Assembly (NCBI GenBank): GCA_028865725.1
Contig: JAGWJP010000002.1
Span: 104,050-168,049 of the forward strand
From: Patescibacteria group bacterium
GTDB taxonomy: Bacteria; Patescibacteriota; Minisyncoccia; UBA6257; JACRHW01
DNA length: 64,000 nt
Direction: 5' to 3'
This document shows, piece by piece, positions 11,957 to 64,000 of the stretch. Position 1 is the stretch's first letter; every line of letters begins with the position of its first letter. Under the pieces are notes generated by a model, which did no database searches, was not told the origin of the DNA, and saw nothing but the letters and a program-made list of their open reading frames with translations. Position numbers and translations under genes: made by a program.

Positions 11957-12180
11957 AATACTTGTTATTCACAACCTCGTGTTAATCCTAAAGTAGATAT
12001 CACTATTCTAATGCCTTCTCACCAATGAATCAAATTATCCCTTACGTGACGATCGTCAGATAAGGGATTATTGTATCGCAAATGGCTTAGAATGGCTTAT
12101 GCGGGGACTCAATGATAAGTGTGGCTGGTATTTTGAAACAAAAAAAGCCTTGGAATGTTTTCTTGAGGCATGGGGTAGAA

Positions 12181-12208
12181 AAAGAAAAACCCCGAGATTC
12201 GCTCGGGG
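12181..12208 (-). terminator. Rho-independent terminator downstream of GC-rich gene
   Basis: Minus-strand hairpin CCCCGAGCGAATCTCGGGG followed by TTTTTCTTT. Confidence 0.6.
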
Positions 12209-12347
12209 TACCTGCCACACATGTGACAGGATTTTGTCTGCCCGCCGCGGCCACCCGCGGCAGGACTTTTAAGTGAGTCCCAGCCGATCACTCGGCGCGG
12301 GACTTGCGGGGGCGAGGCCCCCGCCATCTGCTGGCTGGCCCGAAGGC

Positions 12348-13124
12348 CTACCAGCGGTTGCCGTGCTTGCCGTTGGTCTGGCGACCGCGCGAGCCACGGT
12401 CGCCGCCGTTGCGCTGGTAGCCGCCGCGGCCGGACGACTCGTCGTCGTCCTTTCCACGGACGTCGTCCCAGCGGCGGCCGCCGGCGCGGGAGTCCGTGTG
12501 CGGAGCCGGCTGATGCCGCTCCCGGTACGCCTGCTCCTCGCGGCGCAGGCCACCAAGCTCCTCGGCGCGCATCTGGGCCTGGTAGCCCGACTGCGCGTGG
12601 AGAGGCTTGCGGCCGTTGCCGAGACGCCGGATGTTGTCGAGGCAGCGGCCGGTGTGACCGACCTCCACCTGCACCGAGCGATCCTTCTGGAAGCGCGGAA
12701 CCGCCTGACCGCGGTACACGATTCCTTCCGGATTGCGGTCGGGGTCGATGTACTGGTCCTTCGTCAGGATCGCGCCGTTCTCCTGCTTCAGGATGACGAC
12801 ACGCACGGGCGCGTCGACCACTTTGTTGCAGAAGGAGCACTTGGTTCCGTCCAGGATGGAGTCGTCCGGACCGATGAGGGTCTTGACGTCCTCCAGCCCG
12901 AGGGTGGTGCCGTTGGCGAACTGCCTGACGGATTCCTGGGTGAAGTAGTTCTGGCCGCCGTGAGCGTCGAAGTACTGCTTCGCCTCTTCCGTCATGAGCG
13001 GGAGCGCGGACGCGCCCCGCTTGGCCTGGTTGCGCTCGAGAGCGCTTCCGGACTTCTGCGAGGGGGGGACGACGGTCAGGGTGGCGGTGGTGTTCTTGGA
13101 CATGGTTAGTGTCCTCCTTTTCAT
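12348..13124 (-). CDS. Hypothetical protein encoded on a high-GC (about 68 percent) foreign segment; CxxC...HxxxC motif and RGG-rich tail
   Basis: 258 aa; strong RBS AAAGGAGGA 8 nt upstream of ATG; GC3-biased codons (GCC, CTG, CGC, ACC) unlike the flanking genes; balanced amino-acid composition versus nonsense Ala/Arg/Pro-rich alternative frames; C-terminal RGGYQRNGGDRGSRGR low-complexity tail. Confidence 0.55.
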   Translation of the reverse strand: MKRRTLTMSKNTTATLTVVPPSQKSGSALERNQAKRGASALPLMTEEAKQYFDAHGGQNYFTQESVRQFANGTTLGLEDVKTLIGPDDSILDGTKCSFCNKVVDAPVRVVILKQENGAILTKDQYIDPDRNPEGIVYRGQAVPRFQKDRSVQVEVGHTGRCLDNIRRLGNGRKPLHAQSGYQAQMRAEELGGLRREEQAYRERHQPAPHTDSRAGGRRWDDVRGKDDDESSGRGGYQRNGGDRGSRGRQTNGKHGNRW

Positions 13125-13324
13125 TTTCGGATACTCTTCGTTCGTCAGTCAAAAGACTTCAGTCAGAAAGAGCCCGTTCGAAGTATAATCGTTATGCTTG
13201 CGCATCGTTCATATACCTCGAACGCGCCCTTCCTGATTTAGGGTCTTCAACATTTGGGTCGAAGAGTATGTCAGGTTTTTCAATGTTCTTAAGCCCATTA
13301 TACACCATCTTGAATTATTTGTCA

Positions 13325-13340
13325 ACCCCTCACCTTTTAG
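13325..13340. repeat. Left arm of 16-bp perfect inverted repeat flanking the GIY-YIG gene (ACCCCTCACCTTTTAG)
   Basis: Exact reverse complement found at 13615..13630. Confidence 0.8.
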
Positions 13341-13598
13341 GCATCGTTTAAACTATTGGCTATCCTTCTTTTTAACTGTCCATACGCTCTTCCAAATCCC
13401 TTAAGGCGTCTCTCACACAATTTAGCATCATCTTCCGAACGATATGCTTCCACGTAGACATATATCCAGGGCTGATAACGCGCAGTTGATGGCGATTGGC
13501 CACTGTTGTGCTCTAATAGTCTTCTTTTTAAATCGTTCGTTTTTCCGATATATAACGATTTGTTCGCCTTGCTCTTTAATACATACACGTAATGCATA
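13337..13598 (-). CDS. GIY-YIG nuclease domain protein (YhbQ/UPF0213-like)
   Basis: ATG at 13598 gives an 87 aa product starting MHYVYVLKS..LYIGKTNDLKRRLLEHN (GIY-YIG core with conserved R and E/N). The ORF track's longer version starts at a TTG. Confidence 0.75.
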
Positions 13599-13614
13599 CC
13601 TGCATTATTATGTC

Positions 13615-13630
13615 TAAAAGGTGAGGGGTC
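13615..13630. repeat. Right arm of 16-bp perfect inverted repeat (CTAAAAGGTGAGGGGT)
   Basis: Reverse complement of 13325..13340; lies 17 nt upstream of the GIY-YIG ATG. Confidence 0.8.
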
Positions 13631-13805
13631 AAGTTTTTCAGGATCGGCCCTCAAATAAAGAGATAACGTCAAGATTGTTCAGGATTTCTGTCGTCGCTCG
13701 TTCATTCACAAAAGCGGTCTCCCCTCATCTATTGTTCACCTCTTTATTTCAGGGCCGATACCCGTAACACCGGTGTACAAGGCCCTCATTCAAGTTTCTA
13801 GGTGT

Positions 13806-13833
13806 ATTATAGCAGATCCACAGAATTTGTCAA
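13806..13833 (-). promoter_or_regulatory. Consensus sigma-70 promoter (TTGACA-16nt-TATAAT) reading toward the GIY-YIG gene
   Basis: Minus strand reads TTGACAAATTCTGTGGATCTGCTATAAT; perfect -35 and -10 hexamers with 16-nt spacer. Confidence 0.55.
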
Positions 13834-13896
13834 GAACCCCCCATTGCGCTCCCCTCCTTTGTACATTATAGAGAACTTGATACAGGCACAGGGGAT

Positions 13897-13921
13897 AACA
13901 CAAAAGACCCCTTTTGGGGTC
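13897..13921 (-). terminator. Rho-independent terminator of NUDIX gene
   Basis: GACCCCTTTTGGGGTC hairpin followed by T-tract on minus strand (TTTTG), also T-rich on plus side. Confidence 0.65.
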
Positions 13922-13935
13922 CTATTTTAATAGTA

Positions 13936-14724
13936 TTAACGTCCGAAACAATCTCGAAGCGCCGTCGATACTCCCTCAAAATCACGGCCAAGGAGCGAAA
14001 GAATATACCCCAAACGTTTCCCATGACCCCGATACATCCACCGAGGTTTCCCCGAAACAAGATCAGCACCCTTCACATGATTTACAATCTCGTGTGGAGA
14101 AAATTCGCTGACCATTTCAATCTCCACCTCGTCCTTTTTTCCTGACATGCTCGCTACATCGCAGAGAACCGTGACTACAAGATTCACCCGTCCGGTTTCA
14201 TCGCTTGATTTTGCATCAATACGAAAATAGTTCCACAAGGGATCAACTTCAAGGCCCGCTTCCTCGCCTGTTTCACGATGCAGGACGCGCCTAATCACAT
14301 CGATTAACCCGTCAACTTCAATCTCATCAAGAAGTTCCTGCAACATTTCTGCCTTAACGCTTTTTGAAATTTCACGTTCTTTTGTGCCATCACCCTTAAT
14401 GTCGATAATGTCGACTCCCCCTCCGGGAAGCCCCCATGCCTCCGGTTTTACTACCGGCTCGCCATCGACCAAAAACGTGTCTTCCTTTTCGAACACCAGG
14501 CATATCCGTACTTCTTCGGGATTCATCCGACCACGCTCTAACTGGGCGGAAAATCCCTTGCCGTCTTTCATCCTTACCGGAACGCAAAAGACGGAAAGAT
14601 GTCCCACCGATCCTTCATACGCTTCAAGCGTACGCCGAAGCGCGGCGAGCAAACGCTCTTTCTCTCCTACAGTTTCCATTGCGCGCTTTTGGCGCGCGAT
14701 AAGCCATCCCTTCATTTTCAACAC
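13936..14724 (-). CDS. NUDIX-family hydrolase with insertion inside the Nudix box
   Basis: 262 aa; GLPGGGV ... RRVLHRETGEEAGLEV matches the G-x5-E ... REUxEExGU Nudix signature but with an approximately 45-aa insertion between the two halves. Confidence 0.55.
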   Translation of the reverse strand: MLKMKGWLIARQKRAMETVGEKERLLAALRRTLEAYEGSVGHLSVFCVPVRMKDGKGFSAQLERGRMNPEEVRICLVFEKEDTFLVDGEPVVKPEAWGLPGGGVDIIDIKGDGTKEREISKSVKAEMLQELLDEIEVDGLIDVIRRVLHRETGEEAGLEVDPLWNYFRIDAKSSDETGRVNLVVTVLCDVASMSGKKDEVEIEMVSEFSPHEIVNHVKGADLVSGKPRWMYRGHGKRLGYILSLLGRDFEGVSTALRDCFGR

Positions 14725-16057: not shown

Positions 16058-17818
16058 CTATTCAATTGATTTGAGAGAAGCAGCAATAGAGCGACGGAGC
16101 GCATCAATCTCCTTTTCTTTTTCTTCTCCTGCATTTTCTAATGGCATAGGGTTGTTGTGTGCGAAAGGGGTGAGCAGCGCATCTAACTGTGGCGCATGAT
16201 ACACAGTTGTTTCGACCACCGGTGCTGCGCCACCTTCCACGCTCTCAGCCACTGCCAGTGTTGCCGGAATCGAATCCTCTGACGTCGCAACCACTGGACG
16301 CGTTGCGCGGGGACGCGTGGGCGGAATAATCTTTCCCGCCTGGATGAGCTTGAGGCAGTTTTTGCAATATACAGGACGTTTTGGATCTGGCTGAAATGGA
16401 ATTTGCGTCTCCGTGCCGCAATTCCAGCAAATTGCCGAATACATCGCGCGTTGCGAATCGGGCTGACTCGAATGCGAAGCATCCGGAGCAACTCCACCCT
16501 CTCCCTGCATAGATGCTTCTTTATCAGACATGAATACGGTGCTCAACCATTCATTAATAATCTCATCTACGCGTTCACGAGGCACGGAATACGTGGCATA
16601 GGTATAGCGTAAAATCTCATTGCGAAAACTCACCTCGGGAAGAGGAGTGGGAGGAAGGGTTACTGCAGAAAACGCGGGCGATGTAGCTCCATCAATCATA
16701 AGTTTCATCGCCACCTGTGCCCGCGGCAAGTTCACAAAATCGTTGACCACAAAAACAGGAAACATTTCTTTTTCAAACAGCTCTGCATCATCAGGCCCAA
16801 TGCGAAACACCATCATCGTCCCCACGTTTCCCACAATCGCATCGCGTACTGTTTCGTCCATCTGTGAAATATACTGGTTTGCCACGATAAGATTGAGGTG
16901 AAATTTCCGCGCCTCAGCAAGGATAGAGGCAAAGGCAGGCGTTGCAAAATGTTGAAACTCATCGATATATAAATAAAAATCCTTGCGATCTTTTTCGTCG
17001 GGTATATCGATGCGGCTCATGGCAGCAAGTTGGAGCTTAGTCGTAAGGAGGGCACCTAAGATCCTGCTATTATCTTCGCCGATTTTCCCGCGCGAAAGAT
17101 TCACTAAAAAAATGGACCCTTCATCCATAATTTTCCGAATATCAATCGTCGAATGCGGCTGACCTACAATATTTCTAAGAAGCGGGTTCATGGTAATCTG
17201 ACCAATCTTGTTCTGAATAGGCGCGATCGCTTCGGTTTGAAACTGCTCTTTGTAGCGCGCAAACTCTTTCGTCCAAAAATCGCGTATCAAAGGATCGGTA
17301 AGCTGGTCGATCACGTATTTGCGATAATCCTTATCGTTCAACAAGCGCATGATACCAAGCAGGGTCGCATCAGGAATTTCAAGAAGCGCCATAAGGCAAT
17401 TATTAAGAATATACTCCATACGCGCCGACCATACATCAGGCCAAATCTTCTTAAACACGCTCATAAGTCCCGAGGCGACAAGGTGGCGCCTATCCGGCGT
17501 TACATTTTCCATGGGATTAAACGCGATCGCCTGATCAAGCACGGAAGGATCAAAATAGATCACATCCTTGATGCGATTCTCGGGAACAAAATCGAGTAGT
17601 TTTTCTACTGAATCGCCGTGAGGGTCAATAAACGCAAGCCCTCTCCCCGCAACCATATCTTGAATAGCCATATTTTCCAGCAAGACGCTTTTTCCCATGC
17701 CGCTCTTCCCGATAATATACGTGTGGCGCCTCCGATCATCCTCTCGGATACCAAAACGCACCCGTTGATTGCGGAAATTTGTTTCTCCTAATATCAGATC
17801 AAAAGTACTTTCTGCCAT
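16058..17818 (-). CDS. DUF87/TraD-VirD4-like P-loop ATPase with C-terminal CxxC-x16-CxxC zinc ribbon
   Basis: 586 aa; Walker A IIGKSGMGKS at residue about 35, IDPHGD motif, Walker B-like YLYIDEFQ; no N-terminal TM; C-terminal CWNCGTETQIPFQPDPKRPVYCKNC. Confidence 0.65.
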   Translation of the reverse strand: MAESTFDLILGETNFRNQRVRFGIREDDRRRHTYIIGKSGMGKSVLLENMAIQDMVAGRGLAFIDPHGDSVEKLLDFVPENRIKDVIYFDPSVLDQAIAFNPMENVTPDRRHLVASGLMSVFKKIWPDVWSARMEYILNNCLMALLEIPDATLLGIMRLLNDKDYRKYVIDQLTDPLIRDFWTKEFARYKEQFQTEAIAPIQNKIGQITMNPLLRNIVGQPHSTIDIRKIMDEGSIFLVNLSRGKIGEDNSRILGALLTTKLQLAAMSRIDIPDEKDRKDFYLYIDEFQHFATPAFASILAEARKFHLNLIVANQYISQMDETVRDAIVGNVGTMMVFRIGPDDAELFEKEMFPVFVVNDFVNLPRAQVAMKLMIDGATSPAFSAVTLPPTPLPEVSFRNEILRYTYATYSVPRERVDEIINEWLSTVFMSDKEASMQGEGGVAPDASHSSQPDSQRAMYSAICWNCGTETQIPFQPDPKRPVYCKNCLKLIQAGKIIPPTRPRATRPVVATSEDSIPATLAVAESVEGGAAPVVETTVYHAPQLDALLTPFAHNNPMPLENAGEEKEKEIDALRRSIAASLKSIE

Positions 17819-17908
17819 AGTGTGTACGCGCTGCGTATGCTACTGTATTACGTGCATATTTCTATTGTAACAAAGAAGTCCCCACCTGAATACAAAAACC
17901 AATCTGTA

Positions 17909-19156
17909 CTAGACAGGAAGGTTCGGGGGCGGCTGTCCTTTTTTTGTTTCCAGTCTATGCAAAAACGGAGCCGCGACATTCGCCATCGGATAATGATAAA
18001 TCGTCGCAAGCTCTTCCGTTGACATTACCATACTCTTTTGCGGAAAAAGTCTCAATTGGTACGCGCGATATATATCCTCCTTCATAAGGAATTCGGTTCT
18101 TTTCTTAAAGAACAAGCTCTTGGGGCCGGGAAGCGTCGCCAAATTAGGCACAAACCCGTTCATGTGAGTCGTATTAAAAATCTTAAACGCACCCGCGAGC
18201 GCTGCTACGTTTACGCGCGTGAATTGATCTCTACGATCAATATAAATCATACGCATTCCTGTCTCAAATGCGAGTTGTGACATTTTTCGCTCCACCGCTT
18301 CAAGTACCTCTCGTTTTCCCGGAGTTAATTTGGTCACATCACTCTCCTTCTTAGGAGCCTCCGCACTCCATGTGGGATGCTCAAAGGGCGCTTTTAAAAG
18401 ATTTACGATAAACTCAAGCAGTCCCTCGATCAATCCATCAAAAAACCCTTTTTTCAGTATAATGGGAACCCCTGATAATTTTTTAATCACAAGGTCGCCT
18501 TCTTCCTTAAATGCTTTGCGTGCAGGTTTGATAAGAATCTGGATCCACATCAATTCATCATTTTTCAACTGACTCATAGTCTCAATCACGCTTGACAACG
18601 GATCAACGCGACGCTCTTCTTTTACTTCTTCGAAGCTCGGATAAGTTCTTATTGGAAAGGGGCTCTCGTTTGTAAACACGTAATCCGCGCCCCAGATATC
18701 ATAATCCTTGTTCGGAAGCACATCCGCAATCGCATGCGTATAATCGTCTACCCCCACCACTTCGGCATCGGGATACTGCGCATACACTTGCGATTCAATT
18801 AAATTTTTGAACTTACTCGGTGTATGTATATAAAAATGAACACCGCCCCCCGTGCCCGCAATCTCAAAACTTATCCATTCCTGGAATGTACCTTTGAGAA
18901 ATGCATCCCGCGGGCGTATAAATGCCTGAATCGCGTGCATGCCATTAAAAATCTGCTCCATTGACTTGGGAGTTTTTAATATCTCTTTAGGAATCCGAAC
19001 CTCAAGGGTAATCCACGAAATGCTCGATGCATACATCGCGGTCACATACATTTTCCAAAAATCTACAAGAACCAAATACAACACCAGCGGAAGTATAAAC
19101 CACCATACCAGACCCCACACCATGAGAATACTTGAAAAAAGTCCTGAGACAATCAC
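17909..19156 (-). CDS. Hypothetical membrane protein (two N-terminal TM helices, large soluble domain) adjacent to DUF87 ATPase
   Basis: 415 aa; N-terminal hydrophobic helices VWGLVWWFILPLVLYLVLV; no known catalytic motif; 90-bp spacing to ATPase gene on same strand. Confidence 0.5.
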   Translation of the reverse strand: MIVSGLFSSILMVWGLVWWFILPLVLYLVLVDFWKMYVTAMYASSISWITLEVRIPKEILKTPKSMEQIFNGMHAIQAFIRPRDAFLKGTFQEWISFEIAGTGGGVHFYIHTPSKFKNLIESQVYAQYPDAEVVGVDDYTHAIADVLPNKDYDIWGADYVFTNESPFPIRTYPSFEEVKEERRVDPLSSVIETMSQLKNDELMWIQILIKPARKAFKEEGDLVIKKLSGVPIILKKGFFDGLIEGLLEFIVNLLKAPFEHPTWSAEAPKKESDVTKLTPGKREVLEAVERKMSQLAFETGMRMIYIDRRDQFTRVNVAALAGAFKIFNTTHMNGFVPNLATLPGPKSLFFKKRTEFLMKEDIYRAYQLRLFPQKSMVMSTEELATIYHYPMANVAAPFLHRLETKKGQPPPNLPV

Positions 19157-19182
19157 GCTTAAAATATGCTCGTTAAAAACCT

Positions 19183-20232
19183 CTAGCCTCTTACCGAATA
19201 GGTACCATCAGCATTCTTTTGGAAATGTTGACGGTTCTGAAGATTCAACAAGATAGTATTTTCTTTTACCAAACGCTGTGCCTTTACCATTTGTGTCAAC
19301 GAATCAGCCTGAAGCGGCCCGTGCTTCGTGAGCAAACTCTGCAGTACGTCACGCACAGTTCCTTCCTCAAACCCCCACTCTTTCAAAGCATACACGCCAC
19401 GCCCCACCAGCACAAAGCGGGGATCCTTAATCAACTCGTTGTGTACGGTAAGAGGATGGCTCTTCTTGGGTGCAAACTTTGCTTCATTAATCACTTGAGT
19501 AATGTGACGAAAGTGCAATGGTTTTGCATGACGCTTTAATACCAAGAACGCCTTGTCACGTGCGCCGCGCGGCGCAATTTCTTTCCATGACACAAGCCCG
19601 AATTCACCAAACACATTCTTGCCAAATAATTTTGAAAGAGAAATCAGGTTGTGGAGATATTCCTCTGAAGCAAGCGCCCCCTTCTTTGAGAACTGTTTGA
19701 AATGATCAGCGATTACGTTTTCGGCCAAAGGATGTTCAACTTCTTCAAGATATCCTTGGAATTTTGCCACCGTATCCTTTGCACGTGCCAATGACGCCGC
19801 ATCGCGATACCATGCAGCGTGAAACTCCTCCGTCTCAGGAAAATGCTTCAATCCAGCCTGTTCAAGAACAAAATAAAAGTAAGGATATAATTGGCGCGCC
19901 TTCTTTGTGTCACCCACTCCAAAATAGGGCGCTACCGCCGCAAGAAAGACATCCTCTTTTGCAATACCACCCTTTCCCGCGAGATACGCGTTAGTTTCTT
20001 TAACAGAGGCCTCAAACACATCAAAGACATTATGTTTTTTTAAGCTCGCAAGTGCCGCCGCCTCGATCTGGCGCACGCGTTCACGAGTAATAGAGTACTC
20101 GTGTCCAATTGCTTCAAGCGTAACAAACTTACCGGTCTTTAATCCGTATCGTTTTTCGAGGATCACCCGAGAGCGTTTGCCAAGCACTCCTAATGCATCC
20201 TGGACTAATTGAGAAAGTGATTTTTTTTCCAT
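19183..20232 (-). CDS. DNA-binding protein with sigma-70 region-4-like HTH and C-terminal HARE-HTH-like domain
   Basis: 349 aa; N-terminal TLEAIGHEYSITRERVRQIEAAALASLKK resembles RpoD region 4.2; C-terminal PLHFRHITQVINEA...RFVLVGRGVYALKEW resembles HARE-HTH. Confidence 0.5.
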   Translation of the reverse strand: MEKKSLSQLVQDALGVLGKRSRVILEKRYGLKTGKFVTLEAIGHEYSITRERVRQIEAAALASLKKHNVFDVFEASVKETNAYLAGKGGIAKEDVFLAAVAPYFGVGDTKKARQLYPYFYFVLEQAGLKHFPETEEFHAAWYRDAASLARAKDTVAKFQGYLEEVEHPLAENVIADHFKQFSKKGALASEEYLHNLISLSKLFGKNVFGEFGLVSWKEIAPRGARDKAFLVLKRHAKPLHFRHITQVINEAKFAPKKSHPLTVHNELIKDPRFVLVGRGVYALKEWGFEEGTVRDVLQSLLTKHGPLQADSLTQMVKAQRLVKENTILLNLQNRQHFQKNADGTYSVRG

Positions 20233-20523
20233 AATATAAATATTGTTGAGAACACGTGAAAATAACGACCATTATCTTCTCCGCACTCTTTCTTCAAATA
20301 ATATAACACAGACCATTTTTAAAGTCAAACCATTCGCGCGCACGTCTTCCTCAAAATTCCGCGCAATGATTGGCCTCTCTTGGGAAACTCCTAATTCTTT
20401 AATCCGCAAATATACCCCATACACCTTTTAACCACATCTCAAATAAAAAGTAAAGTAATTTTTAGCTCTCTTCTTCTTTCATTATTACTGCCCCATATTT
20501 CTTCTCTTCCTTACCTCAACTTA

Positions 20524-23206: not shown

Positions 23207-24142
23207 TTAATGCCCATCGGGATGCAAAACCTCATTCAGCTCTCCATCCCTATCATGCGCATCCGCAACAGCCCTTGCGACACTTGCCTGCGTTGATTTG
23301 CAGGTACGCACAAGCGCATCAAGATCTTGATCTTCATGATCATCGTGCTGCGTCCCCGCCAGCTTTTCAAGCAAACTCATCAACGCGTGATTACTCCTCG
23401 CCGCAATCAATTCTTCCTTCATCCTACAAAGAAGCTGTTCGGCTCTCTGAATCACACCACGGAATGTCGCGAAATAATGCGTTCGCCCGAGGTCGCTGTC
23501 GATCACGAGTCCATACGTATTCTCGTAACTCGTCAAATAATCCACGATCATCTGGACTACCTCGACCAAGCGCGCGCGAATCGCGATCGCCTCTTCTCGA
23601 GAAATACTCTCGTCAAGCAAAAGATCAATCACCATTTTACCGAGCTCGCCCGGCACATCGCCGAGACCGTGAAGCCGCGTCTGAGGACGCATTTCAAGAT
23701 CTTCCGCCGAAGGAACCGCCCCCGGCTCACGCTTATCACCCTTAATATAAGGCCATGTGGCCTCAACCGCAAAAAACTCAATCAGTTCCTGCCCAGCCTT
23801 GCTCGTAAACTCGGTAAACTTCGAATTCGGCACATGAAGACTCAAAATCCTGTCCCAACACGCACGCATGGTATTTTTGTGCGTTTCAAGATTATCCTCA
23901 TCGCCTCTCTTCAAGGCATTGATCGCACTCTTCGAGGCAAGATTATGCTCCGTGAGATTTTGATATCCTTGCCCAATACTTCTCCGAAGCTTTTCAAAAA
24001 GATCCGCGAGGGAAACTTCCTCACCCCTTAACTGCTCACGATCATTTCTCAACGATTCTCTAAAATAATTCACTTTTTCCTTTTCCTTTCTTTTCAATAT
24101 CGCACCCATAGGATACGACGTTCTGGTGGTCATATACCACAA
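23207..24142 (-). CDS. Hypothetical protein (311 aa)
   Basis: Long ORF with good coding periodicity, own terminator; no motif recognised. Confidence 0.45.
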   Translation of the reverse strand: MWYMTTRTSYPMGAILKRKEKEKVNYFRESLRNDREQLRGEEVSLADLFEKLRRSIGQGYQNLTEHNLASKSAINALKRGDEDNLETHKNTMRACWDRILSLHVPNSKFTEFTSKAGQELIEFFAVEATWPYIKGDKREPGAVPSAEDLEMRPQTRLHGLGDVPGELGKMVIDLLLDESISREEAIAIRARLVEVVQMIVDYLTSYENTYGLVIDSDLGRTHYFATFRGVIQRAEQLLCRMKEELIAARSNHALMSLLEKLAGTQHDDHEDQDLDALVRTCKSTQASVARAVADAHDRDGELNEVLHPDGH

Positions 24143-24217: not shown

Positions 24218-24412
24218 TTAGCGCTGGAAATCACGACGTGGGGGGCGTGACTGCGCGTGATTTGCACGAAAGCAATCACTGCAATACACCGGTCGGTCTC
24301 CTCGTGGCTGAAAAGGAACTTCCGTATCCTTTCCGCAATCGGCGCATTTCGCCGGGTACATCGGACGATCCCCTCGGTTGTAGCCACCTCCACGATTGTT
24401 ATCTGAAAACAT
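24218..24412 (-). CDS. Small zinc-ribbon protein (CxxCG-x16-CxxC), RGG/Pro-rich flanks
   Basis: 64 aa; CADCGKDTEVPFQPRGDRPVYCSDC, same motif as the C-terminus of the 16058..17818 ATPase. Confidence 0.55.
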   Translation of the reverse strand: MFSDNNRGGGYNRGDRPMYPAKCADCGKDTEVPFQPRGDRPVYCSDCFRANHAQSRPPRRDFQR

Positions 24413-61289: not shown

Positions 61290-63173
61290 TTACTTTTGAA
61301 TAGGGATCGTGAGAACCTTATCTTCATCCAAGATATAATCGGGGAGCGGACAGGAAAATATTTGAAGCTCCACTTCCTGGGTCTCCGTCTTACTTTCTCG
61401 GAACGGATCTAACGAAGGCACCGCTTCCCATGTTGCACTTTCTGATTCCACGGGAATTTTCCTTTCCCTATAGGGAAGCTCGGTGGGAGGATACACAAAT
61501 TGCACATACACTTTTTGCGGATCGCCTGCACCTCCGCCTCTGTTCAACAGTTGCTTGAGAAATTCGTCAGGCGTATCCGCAGTATGATTAATCCTATGCT
61601 CGGGATTCAAATCTCTGAATTGAGATCCCGATGCCACGCTGATGAGAAGCGACGGAATTGGCGAAGAAAAATCCAAGTTGTCAGGAACCCGAAATGGCAC
61701 CGTGAGCTTGTATTTTTTCTCCCCGCGAAAATCACGCCACAGGAGAAGCAGTTGGTAGTTTTCTCCGGCTTGTACCTCATCCACAGGTTTATGGTTCTTA
61801 TCCAAAATACAGCAGGAATCTACCCAGAGTTTTTTAACTCCTGAACGTACCGTCACCGCAATATCAACTTCCGCAATATTGAAATTCCATTCGCTTGCGA
61901 TAAGAGCGCCCACCCTCCCAGTAATAGTGCCAAAGAGAAGGGCAACAGGATCAACCGTAATGCCGCGTATATTCAACACAGGGGTGAGCAGCGCTGAATT
62001 CGAGAAAGAAAACGGTGTACGGTCTTTGAACAGCACCGATGTATCCATGCGCAAGGTCGATTCATTGCCGACCGAAATAATTGATTCCGAAAGATTTGAA
62101 AGACCCATCACCATAAGGAGGCGGGAGAGCGCTCTTTGCCGTACAACCCCAAAATGATACGCAGCGACCTTGCCATCAACATCCAGCTTCAACGAAACCG
62201 GCATCATGCAAGAATGATCCTCTGACCCATACCTTCCTTCAATGCCGAAAATACCATCTTTATAAATGGTACCAAAATGCTCAAGAAGCCGTTCCGGCAT
62301 TTTGTAGGAATCTGCATATCCAAGCGACGTTGTTGCGATTGAGGCATGATAGGCGGGCATCTCCATAGGACCAAGCCCGAGATCTGCAAGAAATGGGTGA
62401 CCAAATGCGACAAACCGGTTTGAAAGGGTATCCACATAAGTAATCGTCCCTGTTGCATACATCGTGAAGTCACCGTCCGCCAGGACTGCAGAGATTGCAT
62501 CTCCCGGTCGCGGTATGGCTTCTTGTCTCGACGTTTCGGATTGCGGAGCAGATATCTCATTGGCTTCCTTATGAATTACAAGCAGAGATCGTATTGCACA
62601 TCTCCCAAATCCCGGGAGCGATACCACGCTCTTTTTTTGGAAATGCCGCAGAAAATTATTTACATCAACCCCCGAAGCTTTAATGTGCAACGCCGCATTT
62701 TGGTCAAGCATATCCTGGATAGGAGTCACTCCCACAAGAAACTCACCCTTGGGAGCAAGTTGGTTCATTCCGTATGCATAGGCACCCAAAAGGCGCCATT
62801 CGCCTCTGACGTGCGCGTACACAGGAGATCCACTCATACCCGCCACCGTACAAACATGGGCAAGCGGCGGACCTACTCGGAATAACATAATATGTGCTTG
62901 GCTGATAAATGGATTTTCTACAGTTCCTGCATATGAGAGCAGGCCCGCTTCTCGCCTCGTTCCGTGCATGACAGAAAGACTGTAAGCATGCATCCCAAAA
63001 GTAAGATCCTTGTATGTTCCAAAATTACGAGTGATCCCATTCGTCGCATGAACCCACCTCATAAACTGAGCCTTCCCGTCTTTATGCGAAGAAGCAACGG
63101 GTCGATACGCAATTGCATTTCCATAAGAACACATCATCACCAAAAATGCGATTATCGATACCTTGAATCTCAT
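61290..63173 (-). CDS. Secreted serine peptidase-like protein (GMSGSP active-site motif, SpoIVB/S55- or trypsin-like)
   Basis: Signal peptide MRFKVSIIAFLVMMCSYGNAIA (start 63173 preferred over ORF-track 63341); TVAGMSGSPVYA resembles the serine nucleophile motif of SpoIVB/chymotrypsin-fold proteases; later GTITYVD..FGHPF segment. Confidence 0.5.
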   Translation of the reverse strand: MRFKVSIIAFLVMMCSYGNAIAYRPVASSHKDGKAQFMRWVHATNGITRNFGTYKDLTFGMHAYSLSVMHGTRREAGLLSYAGTVENPFISQAHIMLFRVGPPLAHVCTVAGMSGSPVYAHVRGEWRLLGAYAYGMNQLAPKGEFLVGVTPIQDMLDQNAALHIKASGVDVNNFLRHFQKKSVVSLPGFGRCAIRSLLVIHKEANEISAPQSETSRQEAIPRPGDAISAVLADGDFTMYATGTITYVDTLSNRFVAFGHPFLADLGLGPMEMPAYHASIATTSLGYADSYKMPERLLEHFGTIYKDGIFGIEGRYGSEDHSCMMPVSLKLDVDGKVAAYHFGVVRQRALSRLLMVMGLSNLSESIISVGNESTLRMDTSVLFKDRTPFSFSNSALLTPVLNIRGITVDPVALLFGTITGRVGALIASEWNFNIAEVDIAVTVRSGVKKLWVDSCCILDKNHKPVDEVQAGENYQLLLLWRDFRGEKKYKLTVPFRVPDNLDFSSPIPSLLISVASGSQFRDLNPEHRINHTADTPDEFLKQLLNRGGGAGDPQKVYVQFVYPPTELPYRERKIPVESESATWEAVPSLDPFRESKTETQEVELQIFSCPLPDYILDEDKVLTIPIQK

Positions 63174-63282
63174 GATGCACTCCTTGTGTTTTCTATGAGC
63201 TATATTGAGCCTAGTACAAACGTCCCCAAAATACAAGCGATCACCCAAGTGATCGCTTGTACCCCTACTCCCTGCTTCTCCC

Positions 63283-64000
63283 TTATAAGGTGGTCGTAGA
63301 TATTGTAGGATTCTCTTCAAAATCAACCTCACACACCCCACTTACGCATGCAAGCTCCTTTTTCACTTCGGTCATGTCCTCGTTTTCATACAAGACAAGC
63401 TTTGAAAAATCGATTTTGGGAAACTTGGCGCTAAGCTCTGCGTACTTTTCCGCGGTAATTTCTTCGTAGGGTGCAAGGCGGTAAACATGATTACTGCGCG
63501 GTAGGAATGAAAGCCCTCCGATCATGTCCCAATTTTCATGCACCCACGCCCCTACACGCAACCACTCATCTTCTCCCACCGAAATTGTCGTGGATGGATT
63601 ATGCTCGGTAAAATTTTCTTTTACCATCTTCCAGTACTCAAGCTGCTGCCATGCGCTCAAATCATCTTTATACACCGTTCCCTTTGCCGCAGGCGCTTTA
63701 ATCGGAAACTCAACCACATACGTTGTCGCGTTTTCTTTTGTCTGCCCCACTTCCGGTTCATAGGGCACACCCATATCGCGAAGCATCTTGAAAATAGGAT
63801 TATGCCCTTCAATACGCACGCGACGAATATAATAGCGCGCGTGACGAGGGTGCATACCAGATGAGGAATCAAAAAGTTGGGAGCCGTTACCTGACGGCTT
63901 TACGCATGTCACGGCTGCCGAACGATTAATACCAAACCGCTCTGCGTATTTACGATTGGTCTCGAGTGCGATCTCCTTCAACTTGCGAAACACGGATGCG
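63283..64000 (-). CDS. Ribonucleotide reductase C-terminal region (class II adenosylcobalamin-dependent type, tentative), 5'-truncated by window edge
   Basis: C-terminal ACVSGVCEVDFEENP Cys pair typical of RNR C-terminal redox tails; gene continues past position 64000. Confidence 0.45.
   Translation of the reverse strand, partial: ASVFRKLKEIALETNRKYAERFGINRSAAVTCVKPSGNGSQLFDSSSGMHPRHARYYIRRVRIEGHNPIFKMLRDMGVPYEPEVGQTKENATTYVVEFPIKAPAAKGTVYKDDLSAWQQLEYWKMVKENFTEHNPSTTISVGEDEWLRVGAWVHENWDMIGGLSFLPRSNHVYRLAPYEEITAEKYAELSAKFPKIDFSKLVLYENEDMTEVKKELACVSGVCEVDFEENPTISTTTL

Follow-up and report, generated by a model that had tools for sequence, protein, structure and literature searches.

How could a VirD4-type ATPase that has no transmembrane (TM) segment of its own be held at a membrane, and what would it serve there? 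The question is raised by three neighbouring minus-strand genes in a 64-kb stretch of DNA (hereafter the window), part of a chromosomal contig from a metagenome-assembled genome of Patescibacteria (the Candidate Phyla Radiation, CPR). Gene 1 (19183–20232, minus strand) encodes a protein of 349 amino acids (aa), here called Sig4HARE, in which Pfam recognizes a sigma-region-4 helix-turn-helix (HTH) and, within a tandem winged-helix array, a HARE-HTH domain. Gene 2 (17909–19156, minus strand) encodes a 415-aa protein of the family DUF8128 (precomputed assignment to PF26449), and gene 3 (16058–17818, minus strand) encodes a soluble 586-aa P-loop ATPase with a zinc-finger tail, which Pfam and NCBIfam relate to VirD4/TrwB, that is, to the type IV coupling proteins (T4CPs). 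The gaps between them measure 26 nt (genes 1 and 2) and 90 nt (genes 2 and 3), and the same three genes were also called by NCBI on contig JAGWUQ010000003.1 of assembly GCA_028868355.1. An earlier reading of the letters by a model (the sequence-only reading) had described these three open reading frames (ORFs), and its coordinates were confirmed.

Gene 3 encodes a TrwB-like ATPase without a hydrophobic segment

The motifs from which the sequence-only reading had recognized a VirD4-like ATPase were all found in place: the Walker A motif GKSGMGKS begins at residue 37 (aa 37–44, 17687–17710, minus strand), IDPHGD lies at residue 64, the Walker B motif IDEF occupies aa 285–288 (16955–16966, minus strand), and a CxxC ribbon follows. 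In the family alignment, G37, K38, G40, G42 and K43 of Walker A and D286, E287 and F288 of Walker B are invariant, and identity among CPR lineages is 55–60%. The Pfam family TrwB_AAD_bind (PF10412), whose name refers to the all-alpha domain, matched with 43.1 bits (cut-off 20.5), and the only PDB sequence matches were TrwB (E 3.7e-7) and DotL. A profile built from 51 family members aligned with residues 118–393 of TrwB (hhalign probability 94.7%, E 5.8e-8, 264 columns), covering Walker A, the stretch of the all-alpha domain (TrwB ~190–300) and Walker B; the alignment with TrsK of pGO1 was weak but colinear, and with the VirB4 proteins TrwK and TrsE the P-loop alone aligned. NCBIfam equivalogs scored far under their cut-offs (37.6 versus 366). 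DUF87/HerA (PF01935) remained under its cut-off (19.5 versus 23.2 bits), and no Pfam match at E≤0.1 was obtained for FtsK_SpoIIIE, the 4TM N-domain or the gamma winged-helix families. The ATPase thus sides with TrwB, and its neighbours are conserved (see below), whereas the contrary case named in the sequence-only reading had been kinship with FtsK/HerA repair proteins and unconserved neighbours. A part in an anti-phage system was also considered; the PADLOC matches were limited to mad8 (57 bits) and partial HerA matches covering residues 286–349 only, with no system context.

The ATPase shares Walker A, (I/V)DP(H/N)GD and Walker B with canonical T4CPs (PF10412/PF02534; TrwB of R388, 1E9R), and its expected working form is a membrane-tethered ring. 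Unlike a canonical T4CP, its polypeptide has no TM domain: no 19-residue window within the 586 residues reaches a hydropathy of 1.6, in agreement with the sequence-only reading, which had seen no N-terminal anchor. The anchor would instead be a separate protein, whose 370-residue VirB4-like domain has no counterpart in canonical T4CPs. The locus differs further in being chromosomal and vertically inherited, in having no adjoining relaxase or mating-pair formation genes, and in the optional zinc-finger tail of the ATPase.

This tail (aa 457–490, 16349–16450, minus strand) is a CxxC-x17-CxxC treble-clef zinc finger, with CWNCG at residue 464 and RPVYCKNC at 481. The sequence-only reading had considered such a ribbon unusual on an ATPase, but it proved to be a catalogued domain, matching PF23477 (zf_Tbcl_2) with 55.3 bits (cut-off 27) and TIGR04272 with 57.2 bits (cut-off 36). 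C464 and C485 are invariant in the family alignment, and C467 and C488 are conserved in at least 90% of members; zinc binding by this domain class has been demonstrated for small proteins of the archaeon M. mazei (PMC12704099). The polypeptide behind the finger is of low complexity and ends in an amphipathic helix. Because only 20 of 64 complete orthologues carry the finger, as judged by a cysteine-pattern test, we regard it as an accessory feature. The same domain recurs about 4 kb upstream in a stand-alone 64-aa protein (24218–24412, minus strand; 72 bits for PF23477 and 72 bits for TIGR04272) with Gly/Arg-rich and basic flanks, which adjoins a 311-aa protein without a family (23207–24142).

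Genes 2 and 3 align end to end with single fused proteins

The possibility that the adjacent gene supplies the anchor, already raised in the sequence-only reading, gained independent support from comparison with fused proteins. The profile phrog_5156 (824 positions) contains DUF8128 at positions 76–318 and the ATPase at 396–804. Gp156 of phage G (825 aa) has the same layout, with the DUF8128 profile at 15–319 (hhalign probability 98.1%, E 1e-13) and the ATPase at about 384–761, and the fusion likewise occurs in CampHawk_129 of a SPO1-like phage and in an 885-aa B. subtilis plasmid protein. When the two window proteins were joined end to end, they were colinear with the fusions across the junction, the split falling in the linker; at this very point, the sequence PPPNLPV/MAES, where the slash marks the split, lies opposite DPNLTIP in the fusion from the B. 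subtilis plasmid. For comparison within the phylum, we used 80 species-level genomes with DUF8128 proteins at 32–49% identity, taking 6 kb on either side of each locus. The ATPase gene directly follows the DUF8128 gene in 71 of them (median gap 31 nt), and no fused DUF8128-ATPase ORF was found among the 80 loci. We conclude that genes 2 and 3 very probably encode the two parts of a split VirD4-type coupling ATPase, in which DUF8128 provides the membrane tether and a VirB4-like domain.

The DUF8128 protein is predicted to combine a single anchor with a VirB4-like fold

PF26449 is precomputed for this exact gene and for all 120 listed homologues (the local Pfam copy gave no match on the 415-aa protein), and the family comprises 3475 clusters at 50% identity and E≤1e-3. 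None of the papers searched mentions DUF8128. The sequence-only reading had taken the protein for a large membrane protein with two TM segments; we found a single N-terminal anchor at aa 2–31 (IVSGLFSSILMVWGLVWWFILPLVLYLVLV; 19064–19153, minus strand; Kyte-Doolittle maximum 2.37), followed by a soluble domain. This uncharged segment is the only one in all three proteins that reaches a hydropathy of at least 1.6, and within it W19 and P23 are invariant. Directly after it there are five K/R residues against two D/E, a net-positive segment that, by the positive-inside rule, suggests a cytoplasmic location for the alpha/beta domain.

An AlphaFold2 model of the protein (66 sequences; predicted local distance difference test (pLDDT) 89.8, predicted TM-score (pTM) 0.84) shows a single long helix at 2–45 and then a two-lobed soluble alpha/beta domain of about 370 residues. 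In a Foldseek search of the PDB, the top 13 matches of this model were all TrwK/VirB4 chains of the R388 type IV secretion system (T4SS), with E values of 7e-6 to 2e-4, and they were followed by ferredoxin-like folds without relation to them (E>7e-3), so that no PDB structure other than VirB4 (TrwK of R388; 7O42, 7O43 and 8RTB) was matched significantly. Among viral models (BFVD), the best matches were gp156 of phage G (7.6e-19), phage JL and phage Slash, and gp155 of phage G, a VirB4-like protein whose C-terminus is a VirB4-type P-loop according to Pfam, was also matched (2.6e-8). Because DUF8128 has no P-loop, we infer that the part of VirB4 matched by the model is its N-terminal domain. Unlike in VirB4, the partner ATPase of DUF8128 is of the VirD4 type. 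A precedent for encoding a VirB4-N-terminal-like module apart from its ATPase is found in the TrsD/TrsE proteins of pGO1-type monoderm T4SSs, where TrsD is this module (PMC12102498).

The C-terminal tail of the protein, which ends in KKGQPPPNLPV (17912–17986, minus strand), stands out in the alignment, in the model and by its position at the junction. P410 and P414 are invariant, and P409 and L413 nearly so. Its pLDDT is low and the tail is probably flexible in the modelled structure; it is likely to be a docking peptide for the ATPase.

A fused relative takes the coupling-protein position on a B. subtilis plasmid

The fusion is carried by phage G, SPO1-like phages and several plasmids of Bacillus, Niallia and Peribacillus. 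A conjugation operon on NZ_CP154917.1, a B. subtilis plasmid of 27.5 kb, opens with the fused gene (WP_345805471.1). Behind it come genes for a Replic_Relax protein, a protein resembling pilins, conjugal-transfer proteins, a TcpF-like VirB4 (792 bits), a large membrane protein of conjugal transfer and a lytic transglycosylase/C40 peptidase, and the plasmid annotation lists no further coupling protein. In this monoderm conjugation system, therefore, the place of the coupling protein is taken by the fusion. The occurrence of fused relatives in Bacillota plasmids and phages also contradicts the proposal of the sequence-only reading that the module is specific to reduced genomes.

The fused Bacillus proteins share with the window pair the two modules, their order, and the EELATIYH(F/Y)P-like and PNL motifs. 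They differ in being single polypeptides encoded on mobile elements, beside genes for Replic_Relax, ParM-like and VirB4/TcpF proteins, and no Sig4HARE orthologue accompanies them. Most fused forms are without an N-terminal TM helix, and a split Pontibacillus copy has one.

Lytic Bacillus phages carry a plasmid-like cassette around the fusion. In SPO1-like phages (CampHawk, locus L002, 1759–7284), the gene of the fused DUF8128-ATPase stands between those for a ParM/Alp-like actin and Replic_Relax, and in phage G (L003, 1196–5338) a VirB4-like ATPase stands beside the fusion. On the Pontibacillus plasmid NZ_CP062975.1 (L091, 8509–10972) and the Priestia plasmid pFDU301A (L092, 7914–11582), the DUF8128-linked ATPase is in three pieces; the breaks on these megaplasmids occur at similar positions, with 0.2–1 kb between pieces, and these could be pseudogenes or be separated by intervening elements (introns, inteins or homing endonucleases). 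Sigma-like proteins near these copies were tested as Sig4HARE orthologues and rejected, as they are full SigH-like sigma factors.

The three genes are syntenic across Patescibacteria

The order Sig4HARE, DUF8128, ATPase is kept in 68 of the 80 species-level genomes. Sig4HARE, the neighbour with the closest linkage, lies upstream of DUF8128 in 77 of them (median gap 74 nt), including loci where the ATPase is not adjacent and loci where all other neighbours have changed, such as L008 and L009, in which the pair stands between an integrase and NusA; because the pair persists in such altered contexts, its linkage carries weight. The sequence-only reading had pointed to relaxase and VirB4 homologues as neighbours to look for. 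None was present in the 80 loci, and no Pfam match to a relaxase, an integrase or VirB4 was obtained among the 23 window ORFs scanned, which are part of the ORFs of at least 180 aa. A phmmer search across all window ORFs of at least 80 aa found no second ATPase paralogue, and IMG/VR gave only one partial match.

The surroundings of the genes in the window are those of a housekeeping region, with SecD and SecF on the upstream flank and EF-P, MnmA and LepA on the downstream flank; the GC content of the three genes (0.44–0.48) lies around the window mean (0.46). A candidate promoter (20300–20328, minus strand) was found by a consensus scan about 70 nt 5' of the Sig4HARE start codon: it consists of TTGACT, a 17-nt spacer and TATATT with an upstream TG, and with 10 of 12 consensus matches is the best of the region, although it is a pattern match only. 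No regulatory RNA was detected near the operon by Rfam, the only matches being two tRNAs.

Sig4HARE joins a primary-sigma-like region 4 to winged-helix modules

The sequence-only reading had correctly recognized both domains of the gene 1 product: the sigma-70 region 4 HTH at aa 13–66 (20035–20196, minus strand; Pfam Sigma70_r4, 42.1 bits) and the HARE-HTH winged helix at aa 226–286 (19375–19557, minus strand; 34.6 bits, cut-off 25.9). In sigma-70 factors, the helix of region 4.2 reads the −35 hexamer. Here the recognition helix TRERVRQIE has T49, R50, E51, R52, R54 and Q55 invariant among 63 homologues, in which the densest invariant block lies at 262–283. We found 7583 homologues, nearly all with the same two domains. 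An AlphaFold2 model (pLDDT 92.3, pTM 0.80) consists of a helical N-terminal domain and several winged-helix-like modules; in Foldseek comparisons, the N-terminus superimposed on region 4 of primary sigma factors with a root mean square deviation (rmsd) of 0.7–1.8 Å and 36–47% identity, and the rest resembled tandem winged-helix arrays.

Sigma70_r4 was the only sigma region found: Pfam and NCBIfam gave no match to regions 1–3, and the NCBIfam sigma matches cover residues 1–73 only and fall far under their cut-offs. Because regions 1–3 are absent, Sig4HARE is not a sigma (initiation) factor. The RNA polymerase (RNAP) delta subunit family (TIGR04567) matched residues 226–289 only, with 27.2 bits and under its cut-off of 42. 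Sig4HARE thus resembles sigma-70 in region 4 and RNAP delta (RpoE) in having a HARE-HTH like the N-terminal domain of delta, and it differs from delta in having no acidic tail and in possessing three further winged or helical modules. It almost certainly binds DNA; it may act as a regulator or in association with RNAP, and may in addition guide or control the translocase. One Foldseek match, to a chimera of sigma region 4 and the beta-flap tip (8D5V), extends over 116 columns rather than about 60 and takes in residues 71–86 (~19975–20022); this single match, at an rmsd of 4.9 Å, hints that the modelled helix after region 4 could occupy the groove that receives the RNAP beta-flap tip.

Fitness data separate the essential gene 1 from the ATPase gene

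A counterpart of the unit exists in Candidatus Southlakia epibionticum ML1 (Saccharibacteria), where SEML1_0294 is directly upstream of SEML1_0293 on the same strand (PMC10633639). SEML1_0294 has 349 aa, with Sigma70_r4 at 27–72, HARE-HTH at 225–283 and three winged domains, and SEML1_0293 has 921 aa, with TrwB_AAD_bind at 402–719, a P-loop domain at 361–795 and no assigned domain in its N-terminal 360 residues (PMC10633639). Judged from this size and layout alone, SEML1_0293 is apparently a fused DUF8128-ATPase, so that the S. epibionticum locus differs from the window in having its ATPase fused rather than split; its flanks, a Cas9 locus and TopA, are different as well. Both genes were flagged as core, Patescibacteria-enriched families (PMC10633639, Table S1).

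Transposon sequencing found SEML1_0294 to be essential at all three time points (1–2 insertions against 24 in the input) and SEML1_0293 to be non-essential (PMC10633639). Normalised reads for SEML1_0293 were 5817, 2940 and 1372, with flat neighbours (PMC10633639), and this approximately four-fold drop from T0 to T2 suggests a fitness cost hidden by the hidden Markov model call. The split verdict gives no support to a single-purpose machine made of all three proteins, which the sequence-only reading had put forward as a possible translocation, uptake, conjugation-like or secretion module. In the same organism, the essential T4SS cluster has no recognisable coupling protein or relaxase; comEC is dispensable for growth and needed for transformation; comF is also non-essential; ComFA is absent from the annotation tables, which list only a ComFC-like ComF protein; and there is a canonical essential FtsK (4TM, alpha, motor and gamma) that belongs to a core CPR family (PMC10633639).

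At the level of the phylum, 5,713 VirD4-type homologues were counted in 2,918 of 3,035 Patescibacteria genomes (96%), only 148 of them near virB4, and VirB4 itself was present in 2,417 of the 3,035 (PMC12102498). The authors of that survey wrote that the VirD4 homologues 'may have been exapted' (PMC12102498).

A probable domesticated split translocase and its alternatives

On balance, we consider it probable that the locus encodes a domesticated, membrane-tethered, split T4CP-type translocase for a non-essential transfer process, with Sig4HARE as its DNA-binding partner or regulator. In the mechanism that we propose, the DUF8128 half would be the only membrane anchor and would contribute its VirB4-like cytoplasmic domain; through it, the ring-shaped, soluble P-loop ATPase would be held at the membrane from the inside, probably via the conserved PPxNLP tail. 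The tethered complex would act as a hexameric, NTP-driven translocase or substrate receptor that handles DNA or another T4SS-type substrate in a conserved but non-essential transfer process, and the optional zinc-finger tail could make an extra contact with nucleic acid or a partner. The module would go back to the coupling protein used in conjugation by monoderm (Firmicute-type) systems and would have been domesticated in Patescibacteria, where it is chromosomal, vertically inherited and unlinked to virB4 or relaxase genes; it is these features, together with the housekeeping flanks and ordinary base composition, that argue for domestication. Sig4HARE, with its intact −35-reading helix, would bind DNA, and possibly RNAP, and would direct or regulate the module. 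Since S. epibionticum needs it but can dispense with the ATPase, its role must reach beyond the module.

The translocase would most likely feed the relaxase-less monoderm-type T4SS of the phylum, the alternative being the ComEC uptake channel. A role as accessory coupling protein of this T4SS is favoured by the conjugative ancestry and by the T4SS clusters that have no coupling protein in cis, and it would also agree with a docking domain whose modelled fold resembles that of the T4SS ATPase, which at the membrane binds VirB3 and VirB8.

Several observations weigh against this interpretation. The fold matches of DUF8128 to TrwK have TM-scores of only 0.33–0.41, hhalign probabilities for DUF8128 against TrwK, gp155, the TcpF-like protein and pGO1 TrsD do not exceed 0.5%, and a profile search of PDB sequences returned nothing; with no profile similarity to VirB4 or TrsD, the likeness therefore holds at the level of the fold only. 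The ATPase is not next to DUF8128 in about 7 of the 80 genomes although there is room on the contig. SecDF is also adjacent in 51 of the 80, and because CPR gene order is broadly conserved, synteny alone overstates the linkage of gene 1. The connection to a T4SS is weak: the genes lie apart from virB4, and S. epibionticum requires its T4SS but not the T4CP-like gene, which argues against an obligatory role; in addition, the T4CP homologue occurs in more genomes than VirB4. Finally, that gene 1 is essential and the ATPase gene dispensable speaks against a simple one-machine model.

This discordance speaks for an alternative in which gene 1 is independent of the pair and encodes an essential RNAP-associated or global transcription factor, whose only tie to a dispensable T4CP remnant would be a common operon or its regulation. 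Its similarity to region 4 of primary sigma factors, the invariant −35 helix, the HARE-HTH with the fold of the RNAP delta subunit (the TIGR04567 match) and a model in which Foldseek comparison found no enzymatic or ATPase-binding domain would all suit such a factor. However, the adjacency of Sig4HARE to DUF8128 survives changed flanks and extends to classes as distant as Saccharibacteria, the gap between the two genes is short, and essential and dispensable components often share one pathway; we therefore consider independence of gene 1 somewhat unlikely.

Another alternative places the pair in natural transformation, as the cytoplasmic motor that pulls DNA through ComEC, in the role of ComFA in Firmicutes, with Sig4HARE handling or protecting the DNA. 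Of about 47 loci of sufficient length, 12 encode ComEC on the strand of the pair, 4–6 kb downstream, as do L004 and L006. In S. epibionticum, which has no annotated ComFA, the T4CP-like gene resembles comEC and comF in being non-essential, and ComEC is, like the ATPase family, flagged as core and Patescibacteria-enriched (PMC10633639, Table S1). This proximity, however, sits within a larger conserved housekeeping block (EF-P, MnmA), ComEC is not present in the 64-kb window, and the fused relatives stand in conjugation operons rather than competence operons. We know of no T4CP-type ATPase that works with ComEC, and we regard this role as quite unlikely.

A third possibility is that the trio forms an FtsK-like pump for chromosome segregation or dimer resolution in three polypeptides (anchor, motor and winged-helix DNA reader). 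The architecture indeed parallels the N-domain, alpha/beta motor and gamma winged helix of FtsK, and the housekeeping context and near-universal distribution would agree with it; yet S. epibionticum has its separate, essential FtsK, the T4CP-like gene is dispensable there, and the ATPase gave no FtsK signal in Pfam. A substitute for FtsK was rejected on these grounds, and we hold this reading to be highly improbable. A reading of the cluster as what is left of a conjugative element or prophage integrated into this genome, as its closest non-CPR relatives on Bacillus plasmids and phages and a GIY-YIG ORF 2.4 kb away might suggest, is hardly credible and was ruled out by the same genes, order and housekeeping flanks in dozens of species at 32–49% identity, by the average GC, by the near-absence from IMG/VR and by the lack of integrase, relaxase, VirB4-type or second T4CP-like genes in the searches of the window described above.

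Other features of the window

The window also encodes TrmD, LeuRS, SHMT, RNase J and ZnuABC. Nearly all of its ORFs of at least 180 aa are on the minus strand and GC skew is negative in every 2-kb bin from 1 to 64000, which suggests that the whole window lies on one replichore with a strong gene-strand bias. GC content peaks locally at 0.54 (against 0.46) at 12001–14000, where long ORFs overlap on both strands (12109–13152, minus; 12273–13109, plus; 12348–13124, minus); the one called by NCBI has no Pfam match and a Gly/Arg-rich C-terminus. The GIY-YIG ORF is a small nuclease-domain ORF (13337–13672, minus strand; PF01541, precomputed) isolated amid housekeeping genes, and a 683-aa ORF (61290–63341, minus strand) matched no Pfam family at E≤1e-4.

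Implications

The individual domains of the three proteins were already catalogued and the T4CP homologues of the CPR already counted, but neither of the two studies considered here describes DUF8128 or the three-gene unit (PMC10633639, PMC12102498). Apparently undescribed are the occurrence of DUF8128 and the ATPase in split and in fused form, the likeness of the DUF8128 fold to VirB4, the setting of the fused relatives in conjugation operons and the conserved pairing with an essential sigma4/HARE protein.

DUF8128, hitherto a domain of unknown function, thereby gains a structural and functional context, and the VirD4-type homologue of Patescibacteria is found to have an obligatory second half, which bears on the divergence of the VirB4 and VirD4 ATPases. 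The unit has testable counterparts in a genetically tractable species, SEML1_0293 and SEML1_0294. A bolder version of our proposal, which we think unlikely as a whole, would make the three proteins a phylum-wide, vertically inherited, three-part DNA-handling machine derived from a domesticated conjugation coupling protein. In it, DUF8128 would be the VirB4-like membrane anchor, the ATPase the VirD4-like motor and Sig4HARE, through its sigma region 4, the essential reader of −35-like DNA, and the machine would work with the relaxase-less T4SS or with ComEC. If this were true, the hybrid of a VirB4 N-terminal domain and a VirD4 nucleotide-binding domain would mark a branch of its own between the VirB4 and VirD4 families of T4SS ATPases, and the trio would supply these epibionts, which are auxotrophic for nucleotides, with the long-sought cytoplasmic motor that brings DNA in or sends it out.

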